From: Candidatus Thorarchaeota archaeon
GTDB lineage: Archaea > Asgardarchaeota > Thorarchaeia > Thorarchaeales > Thorarchaeaceae
NCBI GenBank assembly: GCA_004524445.1
Contig: SDNP01000012.1
Span: 1 to 64,000 of the forward strand
DNA length: 64,000 nt
Reading direction: 5' to 3'
The position numbers were made by a program, and so were the translations under genes. The notes under the pieces are model-generated. The model was not told the DNA's origin and searched no databases. It saw only the letters and a list, made by a program, of their open reading frames with translations. Numbering within the stretch: the first letter of the stretch is position 1; the number at the start of each line of letters is the position of its first letter. This document shows, piece after piece, positions 15,565 through 33,106 of the stretch.

Positions 15565-17892
15565 CTAAGTTCTGTGATATGCAAGAACAACTGATTCGCT
15601 GAAAGGAACCATTATGATCAAATGGTTCTCCTCCTGCCGCTCAATGACTGCTCCACCATATGCCTTGACCATGTTTAGCGGGAAGTGTGATGGGATACTG
15701 AATTCAATCTCTTCAGGAAGCTGTTCCAAAGTAAGTTCAATCTGATGCTGATTGGCTGATGGAGCGAATTCAATTCCAATTGGTCCAAAGATACTTGGAA
15801 TCCCTTTCACCATAAGAGGAACCTCGGTTGTGAACCACTCCTCCGGAATGCCTTGTGCAACAACCAGATTGCTCCCACGTTCTACCATTAGCATATCTCT
15901 GACTAGAATTATCATGTCTCGAGCGGCCTTTATGCTACAACCATTACCTAGCCCACCCCTTCTTGTTTCCAAATTTATTGTTTCGGGAAGAAAGCCATAG
16001 GAACTTCTGTGCTTAAGAACCCAATTGAAAATATGTTCTGCAAGGTCTCTTCTCCCGCGTAATGCGAAGAAATGGGCAAGATGTAGTGACAAATAGGAGG
16101 TGACTTGTTTCAAGTCTGAAGATGAACGGAATAGACCGCGAAAGATATGCTCTTTCTCCAAATATATTCCTAGGCTCATTAGATTCTGTATATCAAGACT
16201 ATCATCCCTGAGTAATGCAACGAGCCCAAGCAAATCCAAAGCCTGCCGGACTTTCTTAGCTGAATCGAGGATTCGGGGCCAATCCCCAGCAAGTAGATCC
16301 TTTTCAGCATCTTGCAACAGTCTTCTACTTGACTCTTGAACCACGAGTAGTCGTTCTTCATCCAGGTCACTCTTTTCGGTGGCCGTATTGATTGCTATTC
16401 TAGTAAACGTTGATATTAATAAAAGAAAAATCAAATCTGAGAACCCGAATTTTCGTTTCAATGGATTGTAGGCACTAAATTGACCGGAAGGTGGAATACT
16501 CGTGATTTCCAAAGAGATGATGTTGACGTCAGTTCTATGAGATTCAGGTACTGATTTGTCAGAGTAACCATACTCTGCATCGAATACCTGAAAAACCTTA
16601 GAAGTGTGAAACCTAAGCAACTCCTCCAGGATGTGCTTATTCTCTGAACTGAATTGCAAATCAATCTTGGCTACTTCGGAAAATACCCAGATGATAGCAA
16701 GAATGGACTCGACATCTTCAATCTCAAGTGTTCTTTTCATCAGCTGTTCCCGTTCTAATACATTCGAACACCCGCATCTCGAAGCGGCTATGATTGTTCT
16801 AGCAAGATCAAGCGAATTGGAAAGGGTAGGATACTCCAAGCTTCTTGATATCGCTGATTTTGCCTGGATTGCCAAGCTCGCCTTTGCCTGCGCAAGAGTC
16901 TGAGTTATAGATTCTGTTGGATATATTCCTGCAAGCCTCTTCCCCGAGAATTCAAACCATTCCAGAACCGCTCTATCTCTAGCTTCTACGCTAAGACGCG
17001 GCTTAACGAAATTCGACCCACTTTCAATAGCGGATAATGGAGTGGCGAAAAACAGAGACCTTCGTTCTGCAGGCTGCAATTCTATTTCAAATTTCATAAT
17101 AGCCGTAGCAAGCCCTCTCTTTGTGCTAAATGTAGAATCTTTTCGGTCTGTATCCTTCATCACATCGTCTATGAGATTGGGGTTGTCTGCAGTGGTCATT
17201 ATCAATCCATTGGGAGAAGTATCCGATATCAGAGCCAATAAATCGTCGGCATAGAGGTGGTTCTCATCTTCATCAAAGTCAATTCTCTCTATTGGTAGAA
17301 CACCCAGCTGATTGAACGGACGCACTGCGACAAAAAAAGTAAAACTGGCGGGTTCGAGGGATATATTCTTGAGAAGCATCTCATTAAGGATAAATTCTTG
17401 ATTCTCATTCTCTGTGTAGTAGACCAATCTCTGCAGAATAACAGCTCCATGAGACCGATTCATCTGGTAGATTTGGTCCTCGGGCGATAGAATCATGATG
17501 TGTTCCTCTGCTACATGTTCGCTGGGAATATATAGCCCATCATCGTCAAGGAACCAGAAGTCGATTGAGCCAATAGCATGCGGAGTTGAAATCATACCAG
17601 CAGAGTCCATCTTTGCATAGTTGACTGAGCCAACCCCACCCACTACAATCCATGAGTTATTTTCATTATTGTATAAGAGGGGCGTACTGCTGCCTATCTC
17701 ATCTCTTTCCGAAAGTATCATCCATCGTGGGAGCATCCACTTCTCAGCCCGATTATGAAACTTGGCTGTGAGGGCAGCACGGATTACCTGCAATTCTTCC
17801 ATCTCATTGCCGAAGTTGCCATCTATTGTCACACGATTGAATCTGGCATTGCGCCTGAATCGTTCAATAAGTGATTGAGTTCTGTTGTCCAG
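15565..17892 (-). CDS. Hypothetical protein, possibly a degenerate six-hairpin glycosidase-like protein
   Basis: Long ORF; beta-rich N-half, helical middle, C-term LVVAQGIPEEWF...IPSIFGPIG tail; GGAGGT RBS 7 nt before CTG17892. Confidence 0.5.
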   Translation of the reverse strand: MDNRTQSLIERFRRNARFNRVTIDGNFGNEMEELQVIRAALTAKFHNRAEKWMLPRWMILSERDEIGSSTPLLYNNENNSWIVVGGVGSVNYAKMDSAGMISTPHAIGSIDFWFLDDDGLYIPSEHVAEEHIMILSPEDQIYQMNRSHGAVILQRLVYYTENENQEFILNEMLLKNISLEPASFTFFVAVRPFNQLGVLPIERIDFDEDENHLYADDLLALISDTSPNGLIMTTADNPNLIDDVMKDTDRKDSTFSTKRGLATAIMKFEIELQPAERRSLFFATPLSAIESGSNFVKPRLSVEARDRAVLEWFEFSGKRLAGIYPTESITQTLAQAKASLAIQAKSAISRSLEYPTLSNSLDLARTIIAASRCGCSNVLEREQLMKRTLEIEDVESILAIIWVFSEVAKIDLQFSSENKHILEELLRFHTSKVFQVFDAEYGYSDKSVPESHRTDVNIISLEITSIPPSGQFSAYNPLKRKFGFSDLIFLLLISTFTRIAINTATEKSDLDEERLLVVQESSRRLLQDAEKDLLAGDWPRILDSAKKVRQALDLLGLVALLRDDSLDIQNLMSLGIYLEKEHIFRGLFRSSSDLKQVTSYLSLHLAHFFALRGRRDLAEHIFNWVLKHRSSYGFLPETINLETRRGGLGNGCSIKAARDMIILVRDMLMVERGSNLVVAQGIPEEWFTTEVPLMVKGIPSIFGPIGIEFAPSANQHQIELTLEQLPEEIEFSIPSHFPLNMVKAYGGAVIERQEENHLIIMVPFSESVVLAYHRT

Positions 17893-18105
17893 ATTCAGTA
17901 CCTCCGTGACAATGGTAGTGTGATAATTCAGATTGAAATATAATAAGTAGTATTTATGTCTCATTCGGGTGAACAGAGAACACCGGTAAGATTTAAGCTA
18001 CTGCCAAAGATTAATAGGATTTGAACAAGGCATTTTCAATAAGCAGACCCACAGTGTCAATGAAAGGAAAGAGAGATACACGGAATGAGCTAGGAGAAGA
18101 CAGAT

Positions 18106-19293
18106 TTGGCTGAAATTGTCACAAGACCATCAAGACGGATCACCAACATGATTGCCAAGGAGCTGCGTCTTATTGTGAAGGATAAGGTGGCGCTATTTCT
18201 CATTTTTCTCCTACCTGCCGCGCTCATCGGCATGTTATATTGGACAACAAATCAGAGTTCTTTTGGAGGGTTTGGAGGTGGTGGTGGCGGTAGAGATGCA
18301 GGTGATGCCACTAATACCACAGACACTAGTGGGTTTGAAAGTGACTTGGTACTAGGTCTCATTGATAGAGATACTACAACTTCATATCCCGGTCAAGACC
18401 TGTCTGAAAATTTCACTGGTTACCTTCGAGAATTCACGAGAGAACTGATTATCTACAATGATACTAACAAAGCCTATCGGGACCTGTATGAGGAAAAAAT
18501 CGCAGGGTATATTGTCATTCCGGACGGTTTTGAAGAGAATTTGACTGAGAATAATCCGACCTATGTAGAGGTCCATGTTGATGCAACTGATTTCCTCGCT
18601 GAGTCTCGAATACAAGGTGTTGTACAAGGGGCTACCATAGTATTTCGCGCTTCAAAGATGTGGATTAAGTCGGAGGTCTTTCCATCCGTCAAAATTGAAT
18701 TCACTCCAGAGGGGAATTACATGAATATTTCATTCGGAGGATTCATTGTGATTTTCTCAAGCTATCTTGGAATCGCCATGACATCTGCACAGTCTATCGT
18801 TGGCGATGTGCCACTGAGGAGAATGTTGCTTACTCCGACTAATCGGCTCGAAGTAATAGTTGCTAAAGTGATGGGCTATCTTATTATCGGTTTCTTCCAA
18901 TCCCTTCTTCTGATTACTCTCTGGATTCTAGCCTTTAATCTCTCTCTTAATACGGGATTTGGATCGCTTGTCGCGATTATGAGCTTGACCTCCTTGACTG
19001 GGTCCACCACTGGATTACTGATTTCTGCAATTGCGGACACGAGACTTCAAGCAAATCAGATGTTCTTGTTTGTCTTGTTTGGATCTGTGATTCTATCTGG
19101 ATTCTTCATTGATGTGGGTTTCCTTGACGAGGTTCTCCCCCTCAATCAAGGCTTACGACTGCTTATTGACACAGCTTTCAAGGGACTGAACCTACTTGAT
19201 GTGTTTGACAAGGTATTGAAGCTGCTTGGGTTCTCGATTGCTGCGATACTAGTGGCGACTTTTGTATACGCCAAAAAGCCAACTCTAGGTTAG
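18106..19293 (+). CDS. ABC-2 type exporter permease with extracellular loop
   Basis: KELRLIVKDK + TM1, extracellular IVIPDGFE, LRRMLLTP...AKV, five further TMs. Confidence 0.9.
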   Translation: MAEIVTRPSRRITNMIAKELRLIVKDKVALFLIFLLPAALIGMLYWTTNQSSFGGFGGGGGGRDAGDATNTTDTSGFESDLVLGLIDRDTTTSYPGQDLSENFTGYLREFTRELIIYNDTNKAYRDLYEEKIAGYIVIPDGFEENLTENNPTYVEVHVDATDFLAESRIQGVVQGATIVFRASKMWIKSEVFPSVKIEFTPEGNYMNISFGGFIVIFSSYLGIAMTSAQSIVGDVPLRRMLLTPTNRLEVIVAKVMGYLIIGFFQSLLLITLWILAFNLSLNTGFGSLVAIMSLTSLTGSTTGLLISAIADTRLQANQMFLFVLFGSVILSGFFIDVGFLDEVLPLNQGLRLLIDTAFKGLNLLDVFDKVLKLLGFSIAAILVATFVYAKKPTLG

Positions 19294-19300
19294 TGATGAT

Positions 19301-20986
19301 ATGGTACAAAGAAGTGAAACAAAGCCCCTTTCTGAAGACGAAGACATCCCTTTTGTAGAAGAAGCATATTTCACAGGAGCTAGGATTGGCGAGGCCATAG
19401 ATTGGTGCATTGAACGGAAGGATAGAGAATTACACTGTGAAGTTGAGGGAAGATTAAATTCAACAAACAAAGATGTAGAATTCAATGGAAGAATTCTCAC
19501 TGTTAAGAAAGGGCTCATCTCAAGGAAAATTGCGGTCATTATCAATGAGGATATGCAATCAAAACGGAGAGATGGGTTGGACGCAGTAGTGACAGTTGGG
19601 GGAAACACGAGTTCCCAAGAAGATGTCGCTGCCAGTCAAATCACTGTTCAAAACTACCTGAGAAGAGATATGTCCGGAGATCTCTATTATGATGGTCGTG
19701 ACCTACAACAGGCCGTCAAAGATGCCACGAAGATGCAAAAGAACCGGCAGATATCCTGCACTGTTTGGGGCAAGAGAATGTCGGACAAGTTACCCATTAC
19801 AATCAAGGGCAATCTAGTAGGCTCAGCGGCTTCCCCAGCCCCGATCCTTCCCGAAGGTTTCCTTGAGGTGCGTGTAGAACCCGAGGACTCAGTTGGAAGC
19901 CCCAAGATATTCACGGTTGTACAGCCACAATTGATTATAGGTCCCCGTACGGATCCCAATCTTACCGTTATCGCAGATAAGGTGTATATTCAGCCATTTT
20001 CATGGATTGAAACACCAGCGTATAGGAATGTGATTGAAACAAGGAATCTCACTGTGAAGGTAAGAAGCGGTAAGAAGATAATTGAGAATGTGTCCTTCTC
20101 TATCAAAGAAGGAGAGATGCTTGCAGTCATCGGAGAATCAGGTGCAGGAAAATCAACAACCATCAAAGCGTTGATTGGAGACATTCCAAGCACAGGAGTG
20201 GCCCGAATCGCGGGCATAGACTCACGGAATGCTCAGAAAGTGCGCTATTTCTTTGGTTACTGCCCGCAGGACCTCTCGTACATGTATGAAACGTTTACAC
20301 CTCTCGAAAACATCATTGCTTTCGGGAAGCAGTATGACATAGCAGAGTGGCAGTTGATCCAAGAAGGAAAGACACTGCTTCGTGACTTTGGCATTCTAGA
20401 GAAGGGCAACAGCCCAGTAAAGGAGCTAAGCGGTGGACAACAACGTAGGGTTTCAATTGCGATGGCGCTGGTTCATCGTCCGAAAGTACTTCTGATGGAC
20501 GAACCAACTTCCGGTCTGGATCCGGACAATAGAAATGAGCTTTGGCAGTTTCTTGATTATATCAACCAAGAATATGGCACCTCAATGGTAGTCATTACTC
20601 ACTATCCAATAGAAGCAGAATTCTGCGATAAGGTAGCAGTATTCATGCGTGGTAAGAGCCTTGTGGCATTTGGCACGCCGGCGAACCTAAAGGCCTCAAT
20701 GCCAAATAGGGGATTCTCAGTAGGTGTAGTCCTGGAAGAAGTTGACCCCCGAGCCCGGCCGACCCTTGAAGAGGTTGAGGGAGTCACTTTCGTGCTTCAG
20801 CGGGGAGAATTAGTCAAAGTCTTCACGGAGGAGCCGCTTCAAATTATCGCAGAAAGATGTGTAGAAGCCCTCTCTTCAAAAGGAATTGAAGTGAAGATTG
20901 TAAAGACAAAGGCAGTGGCCGATATGGTTGATTATTACATCGCCGTAACAAGAGGCCTAATCACCGGCACCATAGAGAAATCATAA
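19301..20986 (+). CDS. ABC ATPase with tandem TrmB-sugar-binding-like N-terminal domains
   Basis: GESGAGKST, LSGGQ, LLMDEPTSGLD, ITH; about 240-aa N-extension with two repeats incl. VTVGGNTSSQED. Confidence 0.88.
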   Translation: MVQRSETKPLSEDEDIPFVEEAYFTGARIGEAIDWCIERKDRELHCEVEGRLNSTNKDVEFNGRILTVKKGLISRKIAVIINEDMQSKRRDGLDAVVTVGGNTSSQEDVAASQITVQNYLRRDMSGDLYYDGRDLQQAVKDATKMQKNRQISCTVWGKRMSDKLPITIKGNLVGSAASPAPILPEGFLEVRVEPEDSVGSPKIFTVVQPQLIIGPRTDPNLTVIADKVYIQPFSWIETPAYRNVIETRNLTVKVRSGKKIIENVSFSIKEGEMLAVIGESGAGKSTTIKALIGDIPSTGVARIAGIDSRNAQKVRYFFGYCPQDLSYMYETFTPLENIIAFGKQYDIAEWQLIQEGKTLLRDFGILEKGNSPVKELSGGQQRRVSIAMALVHRPKVLLMDEPTSGLDPDNRNELWQFLDYINQEYGTSMVVITHYPIEAEFCDKVAVFMRGKSLVAFGTPANLKASMPNRGFSVGVVLEEVDPRARPTLEEVEGVTFVLQRGELVKVFTEEPLQIIAERCVEALSSKGIEVKIVKTKAVADMVDYYIAVTRGLITGTIEKS

Positions 20987-21007
20987 ATCCAGAGAGGAGG
21001 AAAAGGA

Positions 21008-24000
21008 TTGAGCGCACAAAAATGGGTAGCAGTTCTCTTGATGCTAGTATTTGCGTTGAGTCTGATTGCTCCAATACATTCAGCCCCTATTGAACGAGAT
21101 TCGCCTCAACCGAAGAACAAAATCGACCAGAGATTATTCAACGCCACATCGAAAAATGCGCCAGTGGACACGCTGGTGCGATATGATTCAGACATATCTG
21201 AATACCAAATAGAGAATGCCATATCATTGATTGACGCATATGCTGAGATTCCACAAACCTTTCAAGAACTGAATATGATGCGCGTGAAGTTAGCAGGAGA
21301 AGCGCTCTCGGATTTAGCTGAACTGGACTACATCCGTAAAATCTGGTCAAATGAAATACTGAAACTGAACCCTCTGAATTTCACCCAATCGAAATCTACA
21401 GAAGACTACGTATCACCAGTCGATCTCATTGGAGCCAGGGATCTTTGGGACATGGGGTACAATGGATCAGGCTCAGTCATTGCCATACTCGATACTGGTG
21501 TTGACTTTACACATCCCGACCTTGATGATTTTGATAATTATTCAGGCAATGCACTCGGGTCCAAAGTTACTGCGTTTGCCTCCTTTGTTGAAGCAGACTC
21601 TCTTCCCTTTGATCTCATCGGTCACGGTACATATGCGGCCTCTATCGTAGCCGGTACAGGAAACAAATCTAATCGCGTATATTCTGGAATCGCACCTGGC
21701 GCAACTCTTCTTTCGGGCAAGGTTACATTGGGTGGTCTATTCGCCTTGCCGAGTTGGATTGTTTCTGGCATTGAATGGGCAGCTAGTAGAGGAGCCGATG
21801 TGATCCTCATGCCCTTCAATACTTTTGGGGCTCCTGGCGATGCTGTTTCAGAGGCAGTCAAAATTGCAGTTCAGCGTGGAATATTCGTTGTAGCTGCCGC
21901 AGGAGACGATGGTCCAGATTACCTCACCGTGATGTCACCCGGTGGCATAGCAGAGTGCTTCACTGTTGGAGCCTATGATTCTAAACTCGATATGGTTCCT
22001 GATTTTTCAGGGAGAGGACCATCCCTAGGTCTTATCACCAAACCCGACCTTGTTGCTCCAGGCGTTGGGATTGTTGGGGCAAAGCCGGGAGCAGCTCTTG
22101 CCGAGTCAGGATTCACCGGATTTGACCTCCAAGATTTGAGTGGATTCTCCGCATTGCTTGGCGGCCAATTGGGGGAGAGTGTAGACGATTACTACGTACG
22201 AGGAGATACAACAGCAGCAAGTGCAGCCATCGTAGCAGGGGCTGCCTCGTTATTAATGGAGGCATTCGATAGAGCAACTCCAATAGTAATTGCAAATACT
22301 CTACGTGATACAGCAACGCCCCTAGATTATGGTGCTAATGATGCAGGCGCAGGCCTACTCAATCTTCCAGCAGCCTTTGATGAATTGAGTAGAAAACAAA
22401 GGCCAATTTCGACACATAACAGAACAACGGGAATACCTCTTCTAGCGTTTGGCCTCCTGACATCTTCAGGGTTGAATGCAGAAACAACACTCTTGATGAG
22501 TAGCTTTGGAACAAGCATAGTAGCTCTAGACGAGAGAGATAACCAAGAAGGCTCGATTCATTTGTTGATGGGGATGTTTTCTATAAAATGGAATGACCTT
22601 GAGCCAATGAGTCTGATGAATTTCAATGTAAAGAGAGAATTGCACCAAGTTGCCCTTGCCTCGCAGCAGAGTAATTACAACAGATGGGTAGGCGTTCTCT
22701 CATACGATGAGCAGGTGTATTTGACACTACTAGTAGAGTCGTATAATCTCACTCTGTTCGAGGAAACCTCAACTACAGCTTTCAAAATCACCCCGTACAT
22801 CTTGAATCTTGGTATGAACCCTATTTACAACGTGAGTCTCTATCTTGATTACTCGCTTGATCTGTTCCTAGATGGCCGTGATGATTATGGAAGGTATGCG
22901 CTGGGGAATCAACAGCTATTTGCCTATGGAATTTCGGAGGATAATCGCAATTTCTACTTCGGCATGAACTCCAGCATGCCGCTCTCAGCTTTTGAAGTTG
23001 GTAACTCTTCAGAAGTGTCTGACCATGTGTCATCAGACAATCTCACGGGAAACACACAATTCTATGGAGACGTCGGCCTTGGCATGAAATGGAACTTTGG
23101 CACATTAGACCCAAACGAATTAAGTAATGTGACAATTTCCATCGGATTCGGCGCAAATCGAACCACACTTGATGCATCAATCAGGAGAATGTGGGAACTT
23201 GAGCCACCTGCCACTTTCTCACAACGCGGAGACCTCCTTGTCGTTGAAGCAGATATACCCCGAACGGCTCAGACCAATCAGAATTATCAGTCACGTGCGG
23301 TTATTATGAATATTGGAGTAGAGAGTAGTCAGGCAGTGGCAATTCTAGCTATTGCGAATGGCTCACAGCAAGAGGGGACGGCCTTCACACGATATTTCTC
23401 ATTTGATGAAATTGAACCATTTAATGCTCGAGTCATAACGACCGAATGGAGCCCAGTAGAAGAAGGAATTCACACAGCTGCGTGGGCGGTGGCCACGGGA
23501 TTCGAATTTGCATTGCAGCTAGTCGCTAGTCCTACCGAAACGCTTTCAACAAGTGGAGTGAGTCTCTTGGATGACTTTCTTCTGAGAGACCTCTTTGTGA
23601 TATCGCCAATTCGGTCAACGTCGATTTTTCCAAAAGAAGTGCCATTTGGACCATTTGATTTGCGTTTTCCTATAGACTTTGGACTCTATTATTTCACTCT
23701 ATCAACCACCGTGAGTCTAGGGAACTTGACCGTAGAAAAGTATGGCAATGCTGCTGATTGGGGAAATATCACACTTCCATCCTCTGAGGATGTAGACGGA
23801 TTTTACAACTTCTCCTTATTCACACTAGTACCGCCAATCACAGTTGACGGATATCACAGATGTGACTACGTGTTGAATTCCGAATTTGGCTGGTCGATGA
23901 ATCTTACTCTAGAGAGCAATTTGGAATATCCTCGTGCAATGATGCTACTTGATACGTCTCACGGAGGTGGGTTTGGTGCGTTTGGAAATTTTGGAGGAGG

Positions 24001-25372
24001 GATATCTGTAGATATTGGAGGTGATAGCGGAGGTCTGCCCAGCTTCCCACTAGCACAGGATACAGGTCAACAGGATGGCGAGGAGGGACTGGACTTTCAG
24101 TTTGGTGTAGGAGATATTGATTCGATAGGTTCTTTGACAGATATGCTGGAGTCTTTTAGACTCACTACGTTCTCGGGCTTATCCAGCATGAAGAAGCAGA
24201 TGGCGGATGCCGGTCTAAACCTCATCGAAACGCCGGGAATAGAACTGGAAAGCGCGCTTCTTTCTCAATTCTCTTCTATCTTTATGTTCCAGCCATCGGA
24301 GGGCTTCAACAGTACAGATGTGAGTACGCTTAGAACTTTTTCCGCGAGCTATGGTAAGCTGATATTGTTTGGAGATTCCGATGACAGAGCGAATCTTACG
24401 GGAATAAACCAACTGCTACAACCGTACGGTTACCGCATGCAGGGTAAACACGAATCAGAAAATACAACCGGGATTTATCAGAATTCCATTCTTGGAAAAG
24501 GAATGACCTGTATGTGGCTTGGCGGTGGAACCTTCATTGAAAACAATCAATCACGCGCCCAAGTAGGACTAAATGGAAGACCTGTTGTGCTCTTGGATCA
24601 TACACGCCCGGAACTGGCATTATTTGGATCCTCACGGATATTCATGAACAAACACCTCGTGAAATGTAATAATAGTATTCTATTGGATAACCTCATAGAA
24701 TATCTGTTGAGAGATACGCTGACAACCGAAACGAGCCTCTCAGAAGACACGAACCGATTCCCCGTCGGAAAGAGTGTCTATGTAAATCTGAAGGTTTGGG
24801 ATTATTATGGTGATCCTGTTGACGACCTCACGGTGGCAATTGCGTTTGAACTGCCAAACGGCAACTTCTCCTATTTCATTGCCGGGTTTGTCGAGGATGG
24901 GCTATACTCATCGCAGTTTCTGCCATCCTATTGGAGTTCAAATGGAACTATTAACGGAATATTCATAGTTTTGAGAGAAGAATACGCTGGTACTTACGCC
25001 AGTGTGACTTTTGAGCTATATACCACCCCACCTACTAATGGCACAAGAAATGGCGAGCCTCTCTTCACCTTAGTCCAAGTTGCATTTGTCACATCCATTG
25101 GCATTTTTGGAGTTGTCTTGGTCGGTCTAGCTTGGAACAAATACCGAAGAGGGGTCCGCCTTAGAATACCGGAGATAGATACGGAATTGGGTCAGGATAT
25201 TGACAACACGTTGAATATGTTGCTCGCTGTCTTCACGCAAATGGAAGATGTGATTCAACGGGACGACTTGGATCGGATTCAGAAGATTGAGGCATTGCGG
25301 AGTTTGATGGTGAGCATGGAGAAGGCTCAAGAGGAGTATGAAGATGTTAGCGACAGAGTAGGAGGTGTATAG
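21008..25372 (+). CDS. Membrane-anchored S8 subtilase homolog, probably inactive, with GIFT-like domain
   Basis: Signal peptide, prodomain-like region, LDTGVD, GHGT, KPDLVAPG; GDTTAASAAIVAG replaces GTSMAxPxVAG; C-terminal TM and helical tail. Confidence 0.85.
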   Translation: MSAQKWVAVLLMLVFALSLIAPIHSAPIERDSPQPKNKIDQRLFNATSKNAPVDTLVRYDSDISEYQIENAISLIDAYAEIPQTFQELNMMRVKLAGEALSDLAELDYIRKIWSNEILKLNPLNFTQSKSTEDYVSPVDLIGARDLWDMGYNGSGSVIAILDTGVDFTHPDLDDFDNYSGNALGSKVTAFASFVEADSLPFDLIGHGTYAASIVAGTGNKSNRVYSGIAPGATLLSGKVTLGGLFALPSWIVSGIEWAASRGADVILMPFNTFGAPGDAVSEAVKIAVQRGIFVVAAAGDDGPDYLTVMSPGGIAECFTVGAYDSKLDMVPDFSGRGPSLGLITKPDLVAPGVGIVGAKPGAALAESGFTGFDLQDLSGFSALLGGQLGESVDDYYVRGDTTAASAAIVAGAASLLMEAFDRATPIVIANTLRDTATPLDYGANDAGAGLLNLPAAFDELSRKQRPISTHNRTTGIPLLAFGLLTSSGLNAETTLLMSSFGTSIVALDERDNQEGSIHLLMGMFSIKWNDLEPMSLMNFNVKRELHQVALASQQSNYNRWVGVLSYDEQVYLTLLVESYNLTLFEETSTTAFKITPYILNLGMNPIYNVSLYLDYSLDLFLDGRDDYGRYALGNQQLFAYGISEDNRNFYFGMNSSMPLSAFEVGNSSEVSDHVSSDNLTGNTQFYGDVGLGMKWNFGTLDPNELSNVTISIGFGANRTTLDASIRRMWELEPPATFSQRGDLLVVEADIPRTAQTNQNYQSRAVIMNIGVESSQAVAILAIANGSQQEGTAFTRYFSFDEIEPFNARVITTEWSPVEEGIHTAAWAVATGFEFALQLVASPTETLSTSGVSLLDDFLLRDLFVISPIRSTSIFPKEVPFGPFDLRFPIDFGLYYFTLSTTVSLGNLTVEKYGNAADWGNITLPSSEDVDGFYNFSLFTLVPPITVDGYHRCDYVLNSEFGWSMNLTLESNLEYPRAMMLLDTSHGGGFGAFGNFGGGISVDIGGDSGGLPSFPLAQDTGQQDGEEGLDFQFGVGDIDSIGSLTDMLESFRLTTFSGLSSMKKQMADAGLNLIETPGIELESALLSQFSSIFMFQPSEGFNSTDVSTLRTFSASYGKLILFGDSDDRANLTGINQLLQPYGYRMQGKHESENTTGIYQNSILGKGMTCMWLGGGTFIENNQSRAQVGLNGRPVVLLDHTRPELALFGSSRIFMNKHLVKCNNSILLDNLIEYLLRDTLTTETSLSEDTNRFPVGKSVYVNLKVWDYYGDPVDDLTVAIAFELPNGNFSYFIAGFVEDGLYSSQFLPSYWSSNGTINGIFIVLREEYAGTYASVTFELYTTPPTNGTRNGEPLFTLVQVAFVTSIGIFGVVLVGLAWNKYRRGVRLRIPEIDTELGQDIDNTLNMLLAVFTQMEDVIQRDDLDRIQKIEALRSLMVSMEKAQEEYEDVSDRVGGV

Positions 25373-26354
25373 ATTGGTTGAGAAGAGGGTAAAAGAAATA
25401 GTCGTTGAGGACCTCAAAGTTGCTTTCGGTGACTTTTACGCACTGAAGGGGGTTTCTTTCTTCGCCAACAAAGGCGAATTCCTAGGCATTATCGGGGCCT
25501 CGGGAGCCGGAAAGACGACGGTCCTGAGAGTGCTAACGGGACAACTCAGTCCCACCGATGGAAGGGCATTCGTTGGAGGCATGGATGTGACGAAGAAGAA
25601 GGACCTCATCAGTCTACTTGTGGGATATGTTCCCCAACTTGAGCACATCAGCCTGTATTACGACTTCTCAGCTCTTCAAAATGCCCAATTCTTTGGAAGG
25701 CTCTTTGGAATGAGACCCAAGGAGATAGAGGAGCGAGCAAGACAAGTACTCACGATTCTTGGATTTGATGAGGAACTGATGACCAAGGATGTCGACAAAT
25801 TGTCTGGTGGAGAACGAAAGAGGGTTTCCATTAGTTTGGGGATGATTCACGACCCTCCAGTTTTGTTGTTGGACGAACCGACTACCGGTCTGGATGCGCA
25901 CCTTAGGCATGAAACACTAAACTACTTGAAGGAATTAAATTTCGAGCTCGGTACCACTCAGGTGATTATATCCCATGATCTTGAAATCGTAGATTACTGT
26001 ACTCGCGTTGTCCTATTAGAGAATGGATATGTGAGCCAGTTTGGTACTCCCGAGGATCTCATCTCCACTCTCCCTGGACAGGGTGAGAGCCTGAAGGTTG
26101 TCCTCCAAAGCATGTCCCGACCGGTCTTAGATAAACTCAGCAAAATCGAAGGAGTAGAATACATGGCCCGGTCCGGCAGAAATGCTCTCAAGCTGTTTAT
26201 TGACGAGCCCGCGGAACATATGTTGCCTGTTGTGCAGGAGCTCAACGAGTTAGAATTACCATATGAGGAGATCAGCATCGTGGAGGCAGATTTCTTCGAT
26301 TATTTCCAAGTAAAGCCCTGGAAAGAAAAGGGCAAAGGAGTGGTTGTACCATGA
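25365..26354 (+). CDS. ABC transporter ATP-binding protein
   Basis: GASGAGKTT, LSGGE, LLLDEPTTGLD, ISHD; overlaps both neighbours. Confidence 0.93.
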   Translation: MYRLVEKRVKEIVVEDLKVAFGDFYALKGVSFFANKGEFLGIIGASGAGKTTVLRVLTGQLSPTDGRAFVGGMDVTKKKDLISLLVGYVPQLEHISLYYDFSALQNAQFFGRLFGMRPKEIEERARQVLTILGFDEELMTKDVDKLSGGERKRVSISLGMIHDPPVLLLDEPTTGLDAHLRHETLNYLKELNFELGTTQVIISHDLEIVDYCTRVVLLENGYVSQFGTPEDLISTLPGQGESLKVVLQSMSRPVLDKLSKIEGVEYMARSGRNALKLFIDEPAEHMLPVVQELNELELPYEEISIVEADFFDYFQVKPWKEKGKGVVVP

Positions 26355-29300
26355 AGGCCTATCAGATTGCATTGGCAGTTGTGTTATTTTGTGTGATTGT
26401 GGGATTGCAGAGCACTGCAGTTAATCCCACAACCCAAGGAGAGGTGTTTTCCATTCAGCATCCCCCTATGCAGCTGTCGCAATTGACTCCTTACGAAACT
26501 GCACTGGTATGGTCTAACACTACAGATGGCACGATTGTTGACATTGTCGTTGGTAATTTTGATGGAGATGCTAATGCCGAGGTCACGATAGTCACTCAGA
26601 ATGGAACGCTATTCATTCTTGATTCAGACGGGACTGAGATTGTTCAACTCACACTCAATGGTGTACCGAGGTCTCTTGATGTACTCACAGCTGATGGCGA
26701 TGCCATCGATGAAATTGTCATAGGCACAAGCGACGGAATTGTGATACTATCGGCAAATGGAACTGTGGTAGCCAATGTGACACTGAGTTCCTCTGTTGAA
26801 GTAGTGGCCTCTGCTGACCTGGATGGAGATGGAATACATGAGGTGATTGCCGGGTCCAGCAGTGGACGAGTCTACGCCTATGCGGTTAATTCATCTCAAC
26901 TCTGGAATTACACATCCAGTGGAGCAATAACGGTGCTGCACACTGGGGATATAGATTTGGATGGTAAGGAGGAAGTACTCTCTGGAAGTAGCCTCGGTGC
27001 TGTGGCAATGTTGAATGAGAGTGGCGGGTTGGTCTTTTCAAAGACAGCGTCGTCAGCAATACAAGTCGCCGCATTGGCTGACACCACTGGCACAGCAGAG
27101 TTGGAAGTGCTATACGGAGACGCATCTGGCAATATCCGTGAGTTCTGGAGAAATGGTACCCTCAGAATGTCACTGACCCTGCAGGATGCAATTTCCTCCC
27201 TGGAAGTAGGCGACCTCCTCTCGGGAGGTGTCAGGGAAATTGCAGTTGGTACGACAGGGAGTGAGCTGCGTGTCTATAACTCGTCATACCATCTGCAGTG
27301 GAACAAGACACTTGCGAATACGGTTTCTGCCATCTTATTCTCTGATGTGGGAGGTCTTCCCAGTGATCAGCTCTTGGCAGGTGTAGATGGTGGTTCCATT
27401 CAAATCTTCAATGCGACGGGACGGTCTATCTCTCAGACGGATATCACCGGTTTCTCAGGTGTGCTAGACGACGGTGACTTGGACAACAACGGGAGAATGG
27501 AGTTCATTGTGGGTACTGATACCGCCGAAGTAGCGGCATACGGCAAAGACCACGACAAAGATGGCTTGGCTGATGCCAGAGAGACCCTGATTGAGGGCAC
27601 AGACCCTTCGAAGGCTGACACCGATGGCGATCGGCTAAGTGATGGGGAAGAGGTCTTGGAATATGGCACGGATCCGTTGAACCCAGATTCAGATGGTGAT
27701 GGTCTAAACGACTTTGCAGAGGTAATCACGTATGGTACCGACCCGAACTCACCAGACTCAGACGGCGATGGCCTGACGGATTGGCAGGAAGTGTATCTGG
27801 GAACTGACCCGAACCTGGCTGATACCGACGGTGATGGCCTGACAGATTACGAGGAGAATAATGTCACGAAGACCTCACCCACCATGGCCGATTCAAACGG
27901 GAACGGTATCAACGATGCACAGGACGATAACGATGGTGACGGTCTGACCAACATACAGGAAGTTCGTATCACCCTAACCGATCCCAATGACGTGGACACC
28001 AACAACAACGGGATATCAGACTACTATGACGATGAGGATGGTGATGGCCTGGCGAATTGGAAGGAAATTGAACTCGGAACAGGCGTCCATAATCCAGACA
28101 GCGACGGAGACGGCCTCCTTGATGGAGAAGAGGTGAAGACGTACAAGACAGACCCACTCGATGAGGACACCGATGGAGATGGACTGACCGACTATGAAGA
28201 AGTCAAGATTGTTGGCTCAGACCCGACAAAGAGTGATACAGACGGGGATGGATTGAACGATTACGAGGAGTATGTAACCTATGGCACAAATGTGACCAAC
28301 AGTGACACCGATGGAGATGGACTCACCGACTACGAAGAGATTAGAGTCTACAGCACCGACCCCTTAGTGGCTGACTCGGATGGTGACAACATCAGTGATG
28401 GTGACGAGGTTCTCATATACGAAACAGATCCGAACTCAGAAGACACAGACCTCGATCAGCTAAGCGATTATGACGAGATCTTCATCTACAACACGGACCC
28501 ATTGTCGAGCGATACAGATTCAGATGGATTAGATGATTATGCAGAGGTCATGGTTTGGGGGACGGATCCCAACTCTGCTGATACAGATGATGACGGCATT
28601 TTAGACAAGGATGAAATTGATTTCTATCCTACTTTCAACGCGACCAACGCATATACCTTCAATGATACCATCAACGACTACGAATGGGATACTGATGGGG
28701 ATGGGCTGTGGAATGGTCACGAGTTCTACCTGACCAGAACAAACCCGAATAGAACTGACTCAGATTTGGACGGGATTCCCGATGACCAAGAGGACTTGGA
28801 CCTCGATGGATTGACCAACTATGAGGAGCTGTATATCTATGGAACGCATCCGCGTCGGCCAGATACCGATGGAGATGGAGTGAAGGATGGAGACGAGGTT
28901 CTCATCCTTGGGACAGACCCACTTGATACCGATTCAAACGACAATGGCGTCAGCGACTATGACGAGGACTTCGATGGAGATGGCCTAAGCAACGGTATCG
29001 AGCTCTACATCACAAATACTGATCCCCTCAACGCATATACCCATGGTCCCAGTGAACCCCGCGACGATATGTACGACTCTGATGGCGACGGACTTCCCAA
29101 CTGGTTTGGAGTCGAGATGACAGGCACAGACCCACTGTATGATGATTCCAACGACAATGGTATTCTAGATGGCGATGAAGACCCCGATGGCGATGGCCTC
29201 TCAAACTACGAGGAATATCTAGCGGGAACAGACCCTCTCAACGAGGATACAGATTCAGATGGCCTGACTGACTATGAAGAAGTAATGTTAACGCTGACAG

Positions 29301-32300
29301 ATCCTCTGGATCCAGATAGCGATGATGATGGAATAAACGATGCTGACGATGACCAGGACCATGACGGGCTCAGCAACATTGACGAGATTCGCGTGTATAA
29401 CACATCACCAATACTCTGGGATACTGACGGGGACATGCTTAGCGACGGACTTGAGATTGAAGTCGGTCTCGATCCCCTGAATAATGATACGGATGGAGAT
29501 GGACTTCTGGACGGCTATCACGACCTCAATGGCAACGGTAGATGGGATCCCGGAGAGCCTGGCGAAGACATCAATGCAAATGGAGTTGTTGACCCTGGCG
29601 AAACAGACCCCAATAATCCGGACAGTGACGGAGATGGACTTCTCGACGGAGAAGAGATCAATCTGGGAACTGATCCGCTAGACCCTGATACTGATGAAGA
29701 CGGACTCACCGATGGGGAAGAAGTTCACGAATACGGTACCAATCCGTTACTATCGGACTCAGATGGCGACGGTCTGGATGACTACATAGAAGTAGTAATC
29801 ACAGGGACTGACCCTAATGATCCCACCACATATGGCTCAATCAATGACTATGATTATGATTCTGATGGCGATGGTATCTCGAATGGCGATGAGATCTACG
29901 TCTATGGCACATCTCCAGGAGATGCTGATTCGGACAACGATAACCTAGATGACTGGGCTGAGATTTTCGTGCATGGCTCAGACCCAAATAATCCCGATTC
30001 TGACGGTGATGGGTTGAACGATGGGGAAGAAGTTGAATTTGGAACAGATCCCTTGAAACAAGATACTGATGGAGACGGGCTTGACGACTATGTCGAGATT
30101 ATGGTGCTTGGGCTTAATGCCACACGTGTGGATACTTTCTACAACGGCACCTCTGACTATGATCTTGACATGGATGGCGACGGGCTTAGCAATGGGCTTG
30201 AGATTTATGGATACGGAACAGACCCGATGAAGGCGGACACTGATGGTGACGGGCTTAGTGACGGGTTTGAGGTATATGTAGCTGGAAGCTCGCCAACTGA
30301 CAAAGACACTGACGACGATGGTATCAGCGACTACGACGAGTACTATGTCTATGGTACAAATCCCAGAAGGGTGGATACAGATGGAGATGGCATCAGCGAC
30401 TATGACGAGGTATATTTCTATCTCACGGACCCGACACATTGGGATTCCGATGGAGATGGACTCTCTGACTATGATGAAGTGTTTGAGTATGAAACAGATC
30501 CCAACTCCGCTGATACAGATGGTGATGGAATCTCAGACAAGAAGGAGCTGGAACTGGGGACTGACCCAAATCTCGCAGACACCGATGGAGACGGACTTAC
30601 CGACTATGAAGAATGGAAGATATACGGAACTGACCCGCTGGAAGCTGATTCCGATGGAGATGGACTAAACGACAAGGAAGAGATAGAACTAGGAACCGAC
30701 CCAAACAATGCTGACTCTGATTTTGACTCGTTAAGCGATGGAGATGAAGTCAACCTTTACGGAACAAACCCTCTGGATGCTGATACGGATGGAGACAATC
30801 TGGCAGATGCAGACGAGATATGGAACAGCCACACGGACCCAACTAATCCTGACACTGATGGAGACGGGATTACTGATGACCTTGAAGACATAGACGGTGA
30901 TGGAATAAACAACTTTGACGAGATATACCTCTACGGAACCAACTGCACCCTCATCGATACCGATGGGGACGGATTGTCGGACTATTACGAGATCTTCGTG
31001 AGTGGAACTTCTCCAGTCAATGCTGATACGGACGGGGATGGCATTCCAGACTGGGAGGAGCTCTTCTACTACTTCAGCGATCCGCTCAGAGTGGATTCAG
31101 ACGGGGACGGACTCACAGACTACGAAGAGGCCTTTGTCTACTACACTGCACTCAACAGCACCGATACCGACGGCGATGGGCTCAGTGACTACGATGAAAT
31201 CAAGGTCTTCGAAACCGACCCGTTGAACCCGGACACGGACGGAGACGGACTCACAGATTACGAGGAGCTGAATACCTACAACACCGATCCTCTGAGGGCA
31301 GACACGGACGGAGACGGGCTGACCGACGCACAGGAAGTCGCCATCGGGACGAACCCCCGACTGCAAGACACCGATGGAGATGGACTCACCGATTTTGAAG
31401 AGAATAACGTGACTCTGACTGACCCCCTCAAATTCAGCACTCAGGACAACGGAGTTTCGGATGCAGACTGGGATATGGACAATGATATGCTTACTAACAT
31501 ACATGAGCTGAGACTGACCAAGACTGACCCCCGAAACAATGACACGAATGGCAATGGCATCATAGATGGTTTAGACGACGAAGACAGAGACCTGTTGACC
31601 AACTATGAGGAATGTGTCTTAACGGAGACCGATCCCCGAAACAAGGATACAAATGGAAACGGAATCAGCGACTACAACGATGATGAAGACGGAGATGGCC
31701 TTAGCAACGGAGATGAAATCAACATCTATAGTACGGATCCATTATTGAAAGACACAGATGGGGATGCGGTAAATGACTATGATGAAGTCATGGAATACCA
31801 TACCGACCCCTTAAACGCCGACTCTGACGGCGACGGACTGGACGACGGAGTTGAGATTTTCGACTATGGTACGAACGCTCTCTCCAATGACACGGACTCC
31901 GATCTGCTGTCGGACTACGAGGAGATCTTCCTGACCGACACCGACCCAACCACAAACATGACTTACCCGGGAATACTCGACTCGGAATACGACTCTGATG
32001 GCGACGGGCTCTCCAACTTAGATGAGCTGCGAGTCTATGGCACCAATCCCCTCGACCCAGACTCTGATAACGACGATCTGCTTGATGGCCATGAGGTTGA
32101 GATTGGGACCTCTCCAACAGACCCAGACTCCGACTCTGATGGTCTCCTAGATGGTCACGAAGTCCTCGTTCTGGGAACCGACCCGCTCGATCCCGATAGC
32201 GATGGAGATGGAGTGACGGATTACGATGAAGTCATGGTCTACATGACCAACCCCACCTCAGCAGATACAGACGGAGATTGGCTGACAGACTATGATGAAA

Positions 32301-33106
32301 TCTTCATATACGAAACCGACCCGCTCGATCCCGATAGCGATGGAGACGGAGTGACGGATTACGATGAAGTCATCACCCACGGAACCGATCCGTTCTCAGC
32401 TGACACTGACGGCGATGGGTTAGATGACTATTTCGAGATTATGAACATTGGTTTATTTGGATTATCGCCAACAAATAACGATACAGATTCTGATGGTCTT
32501 GATGATTATGAAGAAGTAATGATTTACCACACCCGTGCCGATAATCCGGACACGGATGGCGATGGATTGACCGACTATGAGGAGGTCGTCATCTATGGAA
32601 CCGACCCCCTTGACCCTGATACGGATGGAGATGGCTTCATCGACTCACAGGATTTTGACCCCAAAATCCATTGGATAGTACCTATCGCATTGCTGCTACT
32701 GATAGTAGGGGTCATTGGTGCGGTATTCCGGAAGATTCGCGAAGAGCAGGAGACAAAGCGCCCCATTACACGCGCGGAACCAGCAAGTCCCGGACTGGAG
32801 CCAGGTATGGACGTTGAAGTTGATTATAAGATTCGAGAGGGAAGAGTGGTCTTTGGTGTAGCCATACGGAATGGCTCTGAACATCTGATGCGCAATGTGC
32901 AGGTGATTCTGGGTGTTCCAGACCTCACAGACACCATAAAGAGCAAGCATGTGGGCACAGTTGATGCGGGAGGCTTCAATGTAGTAGAGGTGGAATTTGA
33001 GCTGCAGCCGGGTGCGGAGGGAGAGCTAGTTGGCATGGTTGAGTACGACACCGAAGATGGAGAGCACAGAGTGGTGAATCTCAGACCGGTACGGATTGTT
33101 GCCTGA
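26351..33106 (+). CDS. Giant type-I membrane surface protein: FG-GAP propeller, Ca-binding DxDxDG (TSP3-like) repeats, TM, cytoplasmic beta-sandwich
   Basis: Signal peptide; DxDGDG..E blades with many NxT/S sequons; long array of GTDPxxxDTDGDGLxDxEE; IHWIVPIALLLLIVGVIGAVF TM followed by RKIR. Confidence 0.88.
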   Translation: MKAYQIALAVVLFCVIVGLQSTAVNPTTQGEVFSIQHPPMQLSQLTPYETALVWSNTTDGTIVDIVVGNFDGDANAEVTIVTQNGTLFILDSDGTEIVQLTLNGVPRSLDVLTADGDAIDEIVIGTSDGIVILSANGTVVANVTLSSSVEVVASADLDGDGIHEVIAGSSSGRVYAYAVNSSQLWNYTSSGAITVLHTGDIDLDGKEEVLSGSSLGAVAMLNESGGLVFSKTASSAIQVAALADTTGTAELEVLYGDASGNIREFWRNGTLRMSLTLQDAISSLEVGDLLSGGVREIAVGTTGSELRVYNSSYHLQWNKTLANTVSAILFSDVGGLPSDQLLAGVDGGSIQIFNATGRSISQTDITGFSGVLDDGDLDNNGRMEFIVGTDTAEVAAYGKDHDKDGLADARETLIEGTDPSKADTDGDRLSDGEEVLEYGTDPLNPDSDGDGLNDFAEVITYGTDPNSPDSDGDGLTDWQEVYLGTDPNLADTDGDGLTDYEENNVTKTSPTMADSNGNGINDAQDDNDGDGLTNIQEVRITLTDPNDVDTNNNGISDYYDDEDGDGLANWKEIELGTGVHNPDSDGDGLLDGEEVKTYKTDPLDEDTDGDGLTDYEEVKIVGSDPTKSDTDGDGLNDYEEYVTYGTNVTNSDTDGDGLTDYEEIRVYSTDPLVADSDGDNISDGDEVLIYETDPNSEDTDLDQLSDYDEIFIYNTDPLSSDTDSDGLDDYAEVMVWGTDPNSADTDDDGILDKDEIDFYPTFNATNAYTFNDTINDYEWDTDGDGLWNGHEFYLTRTNPNRTDSDLDGIPDDQEDLDLDGLTNYEELYIYGTHPRRPDTDGDGVKDGDEVLILGTDPLDTDSNDNGVSDYDEDFDGDGLSNGIELYITNTDPLNAYTHGPSEPRDDMYDSDGDGLPNWFGVEMTGTDPLYDDSNDNGILDGDEDPDGDGLSNYEEYLAGTDPLNEDTDSDGLTDYEEVMLTLTDPLDPDSDDDGINDADDDQDHDGLSNIDEIRVYNTSPILWDTDGDMLSDGLEIEVGLDPLNNDTDGDGLLDGYHDLNGNGRWDPGEPGEDINANGVVDPGETDPNNPDSDGDGLLDGEEINLGTDPLDPDTDEDGLTDGEEVHEYGTNPLLSDSDGDGLDDYIEVVITGTDPNDPTTYGSINDYDYDSDGDGISNGDEIYVYGTSPGDADSDNDNLDDWAEIFVHGSDPNNPDSDGDGLNDGEEVEFGTDPLKQDTDGDGLDDYVEIMVLGLNATRVDTFYNGTSDYDLDMDGDGLSNGLEIYGYGTDPMKADTDGDGLSDGFEVYVAGSSPTDKDTDDDGISDYDEYYVYGTNPRRVDTDGDGISDYDEVYFYLTDPTHWDSDGDGLSDYDEVFEYETDPNSADTDGDGISDKKELELGTDPNLADTDGDGLTDYEEWKIYGTDPLEADSDGDGLNDKEEIELGTDPNNADSDFDSLSDGDEVNLYGTNPLDADTDGDNLADADEIWNSHTDPTNPDTDGDGITDDLEDIDGDGINNFDEIYLYGTNCTLIDTDGDGLSDYYEIFVSGTSPVNADTDGDGIPDWEELFYYFSDPLRVDSDGDGLTDYEEAFVYYTALNSTDTDGDGLSDYDEIKVFETDPLNPDTDGDGLTDYEELNTYNTDPLRADTDGDGLTDAQEVAIGTNPRLQDTDGDGLTDFEENNVTLTDPLKFSTQDNGVSDADWDMDNDMLTNIHELRLTKTDPRNNDTNGNGIIDGLDDEDRDLLTNYEECVLTETDPRNKDTNGNGISDYNDDEDGDGLSNGDEINIYSTDPLLKDTDGDAVNDYDEVMEYHTDPLNADSDGDGLDDGVEIFDYGTNALSNDTDSDLLSDYEEIFLTDTDPTTNMTYPGILDSEYDSDGDGLSNLDELRVYGTNPLDPDSDNDDLLDGHEVEIGTSPTDPDSDSDGLLDGHEVLVLGTDPLDPDSDGDGVTDYDEVMVYMTNPTSADTDGDWLTDYDEIFIYETDPLDPDSDGDGVTDYDEVITHGTDPFSADTDGDGLDDYFEIMNIGLFGLSPTNNDTDSDGLDDYEEVMIYHTRADNPDTDGDGLTDYEEVVIYGTDPLDPDTDGDGFIDSQDFDPKIHWIVPIALLLLIVGVIGAVFRKIREEQETKRPITRAEPASPGLEPGMDVEVDYKIREGRVVFGVAIRNGSEHLMRNVQVILGVPDLTDTIKSKHVGTVDAGGFNVVEVEFELQPGAEGELVGMVEYDTEDGEHRVVNLRPVRIVA
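27545..32660 (+). repeat. Coding tandem array of roughly 70 units of about 22-23 aa
   Basis: Consensus GTDPxxxD(T/S)DGDGLxDxEE visible throughout the translation; count estimated from length. Confidence 0.9.

Follow-up and report, generated by a model that had tools for sequence, protein, structure and literature searches.

The gene at 19301..20986 (+) of the window, the 64,000-nucleotide stretch of a Candidatus Thorarchaeota archaeon contig (SDNP01000012.1) analysed here, encodes an ATP-binding cassette (ABC) ATPase with an N-terminal tandem module of TrmB-type barrels, a protein of 561 residues according to the list of open reading frames (ORFs) and its translation. The N-extension of ~240 residues is an internal tandem duplication of the beta-barrel that forms the C-terminal subdomain of the TrmB effector domain, with unit 2 as a diverged copy of unit 1. 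Sequence comparison points to a sensor-bearing ATPase subunit of a DrrA/ABC-2-type transporter, encoded in a conserved Asgard cell-surface gene cluster; the ligand-sensing mechanism proposed for it below is, in our judgement, evenly balanced between right and wrong.

A tandem TrmB-type barrel on a DrrA-type ATPase

Domain analysis placed the Pfam ABC_tran match (E 3.1e-28) at residues 262-404 of the 561-residue protein, which leaves the N-extension of ~240 residues. The nucleotide-binding domain (NBD; 20033..20710 (+), residues 245-470) is followed by a C-terminal alpha/beta domain typical of DrrA/ABC-2-type ATPases (20711..20983 (+), residues 471-561). Walker A (GESGAGKST), the Q-loop (PQD), the signature (LSGGQQRR), Walker B (LLMDEPT) and the H-loop (ITHY) are all intact in the translation, and a multi-family alignment revealed that the motifs of the barrel-bearing ATPase are invariant across families. 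The best NCBIfam model, TIGR01188 drrA, covers residues 259-549 (profile positions 7-300 of 302) at 179 bits, below its subfamily cut-off of 312.

Fold comparison yielded the same picture of the ATPase half. The full-length search matched residues 241-552 to TM_1403 of Thermotoga maritima (4yer_A; Z 28.3, 32% identity), and the NBD reached VIA Z scores of 25-28 with many ABC ATPases, MetNI, MalK and CysA chains among the matches. None of the best 50 of 998 Foldseek-ranked chains aligned covers residues 1-240; these ABC ATPases span 241-555 only. Judged by its domain content, the protein is an ABC-2/DrrA ATPase that contains a member of the TrmB effector C-subdomain family, with an NBD predicted to be intact for catalysis. 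The label "exporter" derives solely from the ABC-2/DrrA type of the ATPase and its permease and is best taken as putative.

Unit 1 (strand, helix, beta-barrel; 19352..19666 (+), residues 18-122) is almost certainly a homologue of the C-terminal beta-barrel subdomain of the TrmB effector domain. The Pfam profile PF11495 (Regulator_TrmB) matches residues 39-117 with an E-value of 8.5e-9 and 35.4 bits against a gathering score of 22.2; the match is restricted to the last third of the profile (positions 162-231 of 233), and distant members of the fusion family are matched as well. A Foldseek search of the PDB gave significant matches to two chains only: TrmB of P. furiosus (3qph_A, E 6.8e-6) and the sugar-binding domain of T. 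litoralis TrmB (2f5t_X, E 1.4e-4). VIA-align superposed model residues 18-121 on TrmB residues 247-340 with Z scores of 15.9 and 15.2, respectively, at a root-mean-square deviation of 1.6-1.7 Å over 90-91 residues, with 21% sequence identity to TrmB 3QPH over 91 residues. The next unrelated PDB entry scored far lower (VIA Z 6.9). Because the Pfam match exceeds the gathering score and the structural match reaches this Z score, the resemblance between unit 1 and TrmB is not due to chance. A sequence-only reading of this DNA had staked its proposal on structural similarity to the TrmB C-terminal subdomain, and that similarity is what the structural comparison found.

The TrmB link of the extension requires a Pfam profile, hhalign or fold comparison. 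Single-sequence phmmer with residues 1-245 found no match among PDB sequences, a 9-sequence profile of N-terminal fragments likewise found none there, and the ESM Atlas gave no usable match.

An assignment as a TrmB-family transcription regulator was rejected, since the protein has neither a DNA-binding domain nor the N-terminal effector subdomain. The winged-helix DNA-binding domain PF01978 was not found in the 561-residue protein at E-values up to 1; it is present in the Asgard TrmBs P0136-P0140. The absence of the TrmB DNA-binding domain and of the first effector subdomain identifies the barrel as a borrowed domain and not as part of a TrmB regulator.

Unit 2 (19682..19996 (+), residues 128-232) is the diverged duplicate of unit 1. 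In the window sequence itself the two units resemble each other weakly (BLASTP E 0.001 over 45 residues), and their homology is demonstrable with profiles only: profiles built from 30 family members aligned over 96 columns with an hhalign probability of 98.5% and an E-value of 3.3e-15. Both AlphaFold models contain the order strand-helix-barrel twice, as E20-25/H26-37/E42-122 and as E128-131/H132-145/E152-231. The sequence-only reading had described an extension of roughly 240 residues at 19358-20010 (residues 20-237) composed of two similar units, and was right in position and in composition.

Searched alone, unit 2 of the window protein had no Pfam match; its structural matches were generic small barrels only, such as ribosomal protein bL19 (Z ~6), and its direct hhalign comparison with TrmB was weak (probability 27%, E 6.9e-4), with the register right. 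The corresponding loop of the window protein reads IIGPRTDPNLTVIADKVYI, degenerated to IIGPRTDPNLTV, and in the window's lineage it follows the pattern GP-R-x-[DN]-P-N-L-T, in agreement with the earlier description of unit 2 as degenerate. More distant Asgard families still have [VI]GG...D[VI]xAxK in unit 2, and unit 2 of the fragment P0128 itself matches PF11495. On the evidence of these residues, unit 2 has lost the sugar-contact loop in the window's lineage. In family f15, the unit 2 loop (the position that holds sugar in TrmB) contains an insertion of ~70 residues, and the proteins are 605-638 residues long (L022:6058-7872 (-) and L023:7123-9036 (+)).

The full-length AlphaFold model has a predicted local distance difference test score (pLDDT) of 85.7, rising to ~90 over unit 1, and a predicted template-modelling score (pTM) of 0.79; the model of residues 1-245, built from 52 homologues, has a pLDDT of 71.7. 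The pTM of the full-length single-chain model suggests a defined packing of the barrels against the ATPase.

The sugar-contact loop and the case for ligand sensing

Of the seven sugar contacts of TrmB, the effector C-subdomain supplies six (Asn305, Gly320, Met321, Val324, Ile325 and Glu326), and Gly320 and Glu326 are the two contacts kept in TrmBL1, Tgr and MalR, all of them sugar-sensing relatives of TrmB (PMC4158304). The VGG-x5-ED loop of TrmB contacts the non-reducing glucosyl residue, and every characterised member of the effector-domain family binds sugars (PMC4158304).

The P. furiosus TrmB chain reads ...AEITGKN...TLTGRVVGY...VKVGGMFAVIEDYESTEIK, so the TrmB layout quoted in the sequence-only reading was correct. 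In chain 3qph_A, ...VKVGGMFAVIEDYESTEIK334 aligns with ...SVGGIRAQYEDxTAExIT in a profile of five Asgard TrmBs, and this alignment places Gly320 and Glu326 inside the GG-x5-ED stretch. The unit 1 family profile aligned with the five Asgard TrmBs at an hhalign probability of 93.4% and an E-value of 2.6e-7, with the GG-x5-ED loop in register; the unit 1 stretch VTVGGNTSSQEDVAAS falls on the TrmB GG-x5-ED columns. The loop of the window protein, VTVGGNTSSQEDVAASQITV, occupies 19589..19648 (+), residues 97-116, with V97 as its first residue, and is the counterpart of the TrmB sugar-contact loop VKVGGMFAVIEDYESTEI. Residue by residue, G100, G101, E107 and D108 are equivalent to Gly319, Gly320, Glu326 and Asp327, and the GR motif is kept as G63 R64 (Gly291 Arg292). 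The motif that had been proposed for unit 1 at position 19589 is thereby confirmed in register.

In an alignment of 48 sequences from ~9 families, sequences that are otherwise only ~35-45% identical to the window protein over its whole length, T98, G100 and D108 are among the few extension positions with at least 90% conservation, and G100 and D108 are nearly invariant. The retention of these three residues across divergent sequences argues for functional constraint on the loop, which is the best-conserved stretch of the barrel. One member of family f21, L026, has lost the unit 1 loop.

Because all characterised TrmB effector domains bind sugars and this subdomain supplies nearly all of the contacts, we propose a ligand role for the barrel pair. 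The ligand of unit 1 would be a small molecule of the cytoplasm, most probably a sugar or a compound that carries one; unit 2 would probably take the place of the TrmB N-subdomain, which is missing here, and form the other wall of a cleft. Ligand occupancy would alter the seating of the barrel pair on its NBD, and the altered seating would switch on or off ATP hydrolysis by a transporter composed of this sensor ATPase, a second, plain ATPase encoded in the same cluster, and the permease. Such gating would be comparable to that exerted by the accessory domains of MalK, MetN or ModC.

Several observations weigh against this proposal. The protein lacks the TrmB N-subdomain, which bears the sugar-recognition helix (Ser229), as reflected in the confinement of the Pfam match to profile positions 162-231 of 233 and of the structural match to TrmB 247-340, and the sequence offers no obvious substitute for that helix except, possibly, unit 2. 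Only two of the six C-subdomain contact positions are kept in unit 1, the equivalents of Gly320 and Glu326; the Asn305 position is Ile77 (Asn is also absent there from the Asgard TrmBs), and the Met321, Val324 and Ile325 positions are N102, S105 and Q106. Within the family, E107 itself varies (D, S, L, A and Q occur), and some members have A or S in place of G101. A tight turn, and not a ligand, could be the reason why G...D is conserved. Finally, the cluster has no obvious gene for sugar metabolism or glycosyl transfer that is shared by the different families.

Distribution, age and genomic setting of the fusion

A word-indexed search identified 142 proteins, nearly all of them 558-566 residues long, 58-68% identical over the extension and source-named Thorarchaeota. 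Exhaustive phmmer over 1.84 billion cluster representatives added no wider family and returned 15 clusters only; those full-length clusters that were scanned have the ABC fusion too, the rest are for the most part short pieces of the N-terminus, and two short ones (P0134 and P0135) had no Pfam match. Of 400 genomes from the phylum, 126 encode the extension, and with few exceptions each of these has one copy, in an open frame 540-655 residues long. The extension occurs in 80 of the 85 genomes of the window's own family and in 17/19, 5/5, 6/6, 3/3 and 4/4 genomes of other families, and is absent from two large families (0/135 and 0/31 genomes).

This distribution bears on the possibility that the extension is an evolutionary relic, a stable and functionally silent leftover of an old fusion. 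The degeneration of unit 2 and the replacement of several TrmB sugar-contact positions would fit a relic, but the extension is full-length, single-copy and 58-68% identical in those 80 of 85 family genomes, contains no stops, and remains recognisable in ~9 families. Full-length, single-copy retention across such deep divergence implies strong purifying selection on the extension, and we regard a silent relic as very improbable.

In a maximum-likelihood tree of the NBDs, a single branch (100/100) divides the sensor ATPases from the plain ones, and the families branch in parallel on its two sides. Given the conserved loci and this single separating branch, the fusion appears to be old and, as far as the sample shows, of single origin, co-inherited with the plain ATPase and the ABC-2 permease.

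Among 121 sampled genomes, a complete TrmB effector domain was found in one (L030, 377 residues); the remaining genomes, the window's included, have only TrmBL2-like proteins with the N-subdomain. Because only one of the 121 genomes has the complete domain, the sugar-holding barrel of this phylum is found mostly on an ABC ATPase, and the form fused to the ATPase far outnumbers the form found in transcription factors. Elsewhere in the window's genome, PF11495 matches only a 269-residue frame (G000:C49:8409-8828; L002); this match is confined to the N-terminal effector subdomain and is TrmBL2-like. The idea that this TrmB-like regulator, which has no C-subdomain, is the complement of the ATPase-borne barrels was set aside, as it resembles the TrmBL2 type (5bpd matches); it is also weakened by the occurrence of short TrmB-like regulators in families without the fusion.

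Stand-alone single-barrel ORFs of ~145-165 residues occur in a few genomes. Two of them, at L027:5781-6269 (-) and L028:5748-6185 (+), are 145-162 residues long and are related to unit 1, with BLASTP E-values of 9e-10 and 2e-5; neither has a Pfam match. Their neighbourhoods are unrelated (HAD hydrolase, prephenate dehydratase, pyruvate-formate-lyase-like) and give no functional hint.

A literature search found no description of a TrmB-domain/ABC fusion, which the sequence-only reading had also held to be undescribed, nor of the Asgard cluster. Both Pfam domains have already been recorded on these proteins by public pipelines, so that their co-occurrence is visible in databases yet uninterpreted.

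The sensor ATPase gene is the second of five translationally coupled genes at 18106-33106 (+), which encode, in order, a permease, the sensor ATPase, a subtilase-like protein, the plain ATPase and a TSP3-repeat/propeller protein, with gaps of 7 and 21 nt followed by overlaps of 8 and 4 nt. The sequence-only reading had overlooked that the gene is a core member of this cluster with its second ATPase. The ABC-2 permease (18106..19293 (+), 395 residues; Pfam ABC2_membrane_3, E 2e-28) has ~6 hydrophobic segments and a large loop after the first transmembrane (TM) segment. The subtilase-like protein (21008..25372 (+), 1454 residues) matches Pfam Peptidase_S8 with an E-value of 3.2e-38. The plain DrrA-type ABC ATPase (25365..26354 (+), 329 residues), recognised by Pfam and NCBIfam, has all motifs intact. 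The last gene encodes a surface protein of 2251 residues (26351..33106 (+)) with a propeller and 28 TSP3 repeats identified by Pfam. A hydropathy scan indicated that the subtilase-like and the 2251-residue proteins each have a signal sequence, one C-terminal TM helix and a cytoplasmic tail, of ~80 and ~125 residues, respectively.

Further features of these two large proteins were noted. The subtilase-like protein has the Asp and His motifs (DTG, GHGT), and its GTSMAxP site reads GDTTAASAAIVAG; by eye, the nucleophile Ser appears to be replaced by Ala. A weak IFT52_GIFT match near residues 1198-1240 of the same protein (23.6 bits) lies below the cut-off of 27.2. The N-terminal propeller of the 2251-residue protein also matches the ciliary BBS2 and BBS7 propeller models (E 1e-11 and 6.5e-9). 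A 799-residue ORF at 15565-17964 (-), divergent from the operon, was matched by neither Pfam nor NCBIfam models; its conservation is limited to the family of the window (28-72% identity in L015-L017).

We compared the cluster by tblastn of the window proteins against 13 fusion loci from nine families; the gene set recurs in several Asgard families, in two alternative orders. The plain ATPase is present in all 13, and the permease gene adjoins the sensor ATPase gene in every locus examined. Gene order is identical in three families, and four others have the order sensor ATPase, permease, plain ATPase; the subtilase gene is adjacent in two of these four, and one family has two permeases. The subtilase-like gene was found in the loci of families f1, f2, f14, f16, f21 and f23; in the f15 and f17 loci tblastn did not find it beside the ATPase, and the barrels are kept there. 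The N-terminus of the 2251-residue protein was found after the plain ATPase in the f1 and f2 loci. One permease for two different, intact ATPases, together with the parallel NBD trees, argues for a heteromeric motor with the barrels on one subunit only, in which the plain ATPase is the likely partner of the sensor ATPase.

A rival function for the barrels would be substrate recognition: they would take hold of the cargo (a lipid-linked glycan, polysaccharide or glycolipid) by its sugar head group or terminus and pass it to the permease. Wzt offers a precedent, since the C-terminal carbohydrate-binding domain of this O-antigen exporter ATPase recognises its cargo glycan. Domain identity and the conserved loop serve substrate recognition and ligand sensing equally, the ABC-2 transporter type is used for glycan and glycolipid export, and the giant surface proteins of the cluster are of a kind commonly glycosylated in archaea. 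A GH38 alpha-mannosidase with four Pfam domains is encoded at 5639-8593 (+), ~10 kb upstream of the operon. However, the mannosidase is not a demonstrated conserved neighbour: at the tblastn threshold applied it was detected in 0 of 15 loci, and most of these loci end short of 10 kb upstream. Across families, the cluster shares neither a glycosyltransferase gene nor a flippase-linked one, and a barrel-less second ATPase fits an asymmetric regulatory design at least equally well. We consider cargo recognition unlikely.

The architecture of the giant proteins bears on another alternative, in which the barrels would be a docking scaffold without a small-molecule ligand, holding the cytoplasmic tails of these proteins or joining the two ATPases, so that the complex would serve FtsEX/MacB-like mechanotransmission and not gated transport. 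Both giant proteins end in one TM helix and a cytoplasmic tail of ~80-125 residues, and their genes come directly after the two ATPase genes. The loss of the unit 2 sugar loop and the ~70-residue insertion at that site in one family are also compatible with docking, as is the tendency of small barrels of similar shape (Sm/WYL-like, Pelota N-domain) to bind macromolecules, although the matches to them are weak (Z 5-7). By contrast, it is the counterpart of the TrmB sugar-contact loop that is best conserved in the barrel, all effector domains of the TrmB family characterised so far bind sugars (PMC4158304), and f15 and f17 keep the barrels where the subtilase gene was not found beside the ATPase. 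A scaffold free of any small ligand seems unlikely to us.

A more far-reaching version of the ligand-sensing proposal would make the barrel pair the cytoplasmic input of an Asgard-specific inside-out signalling machine. A sugar-type metabolite bound by unit 1 would set the heteromeric ABC-2 motor and, through the permease and its membrane-anchored partners, change the conformation or display of the site-1-protease-like pseudo-subtilase and the integrin-like giant surface protein. We consider this extension of the proposal quite doubtful; if true, it would tie the carbon state of the cell to its surface behaviour.

Comparison with known systems

To our knowledge, the TrmB effector domain has so far been treated solely as the sensing part of transcription factors in archaea. 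Unit 1 shares with the TrmB proteins of P. furiosus (3QPH) and T. litoralis (2F5T) the fold (strand, helix, flattened beta-barrel), the GR motif and the VGG-x5-ED loop. In contrast to TrmB, the fusion has no winged-helix domain, coiled coil or N-terminal effector subdomain, other residues occupy four of the six C-subdomain contact positions of unit 1, and the sugar-holding subdomain has been separated, duplicated and attached to a transporter motor.

With DrrA/ABC-2 ATPases such as TM_1403 (4YER), the protein shares the NBD, the C-terminal domain and an ABC-2 permease next door. These ATPases begin at the NBD, whereas the 240 residues that precede it here had no counterpart among the best 50 of the 998 ranked chains.

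GldA-GldF-GldG of Bacteroidota gliding likewise combines an ABC-2 ATPase and a permease with a large extracytoplasmic accessory protein. However, N-terminal barrels are missing from GldA, and the Gld system works with a single type of ATPase. An assignment to GldAFG was rejected: TIGR03522 scored 105 bits with the sensor ATPase and 141 bits with the plain ATPase against a cut-off of 402.6, and the weak IFT52_GIFT match stays below its cut-off. Pfam found no ABC_transp_aux match in the subtilase-like neighbour.

Sensory or recognition modules on ABC ATPases have several precedents. In MalK, in MetN with its C2 domain, and in ModC and CysA with their TOBE domains, ATP hydrolysis is gated by an extra cytoplasmic domain of the ATPase, to which a small molecule or a regulator binds. 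The concept is alike, but those domains are C-terminal, of other folds, located on importers and active as symmetric dimers, whereas here an N-terminal pair of TrmB-type barrels sits on one chain of an ABC-2-type system whose second ATPase is bare. Wzt, an ABC-2 O-antigen exporter ATPase, carries its sugar-binding module at the C-terminus as a beta-sandwich carbohydrate-binding module, and Rv1747, a mycobacterial ABC exporter, has two tandem FHA domains N-terminal to its ATPase that sense phospho-threonine. The module of the barrel-bearing ATPase differs in fold from both, and Rv1747 senses no metabolite.

The gene is central to a conserved, uncharacterised surface-protein cluster of Asgard archaea that is not yet genetically tractable. 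Its soluble 240-residue domain with a predicted pocket offers a biochemical entry, since the ligand would tell what the system responds to. If the proposed sensing holds, the barrel pair would add both a new fold and a new position, N-terminal and asymmetric, to the accessory control domains of ABC ATPases.

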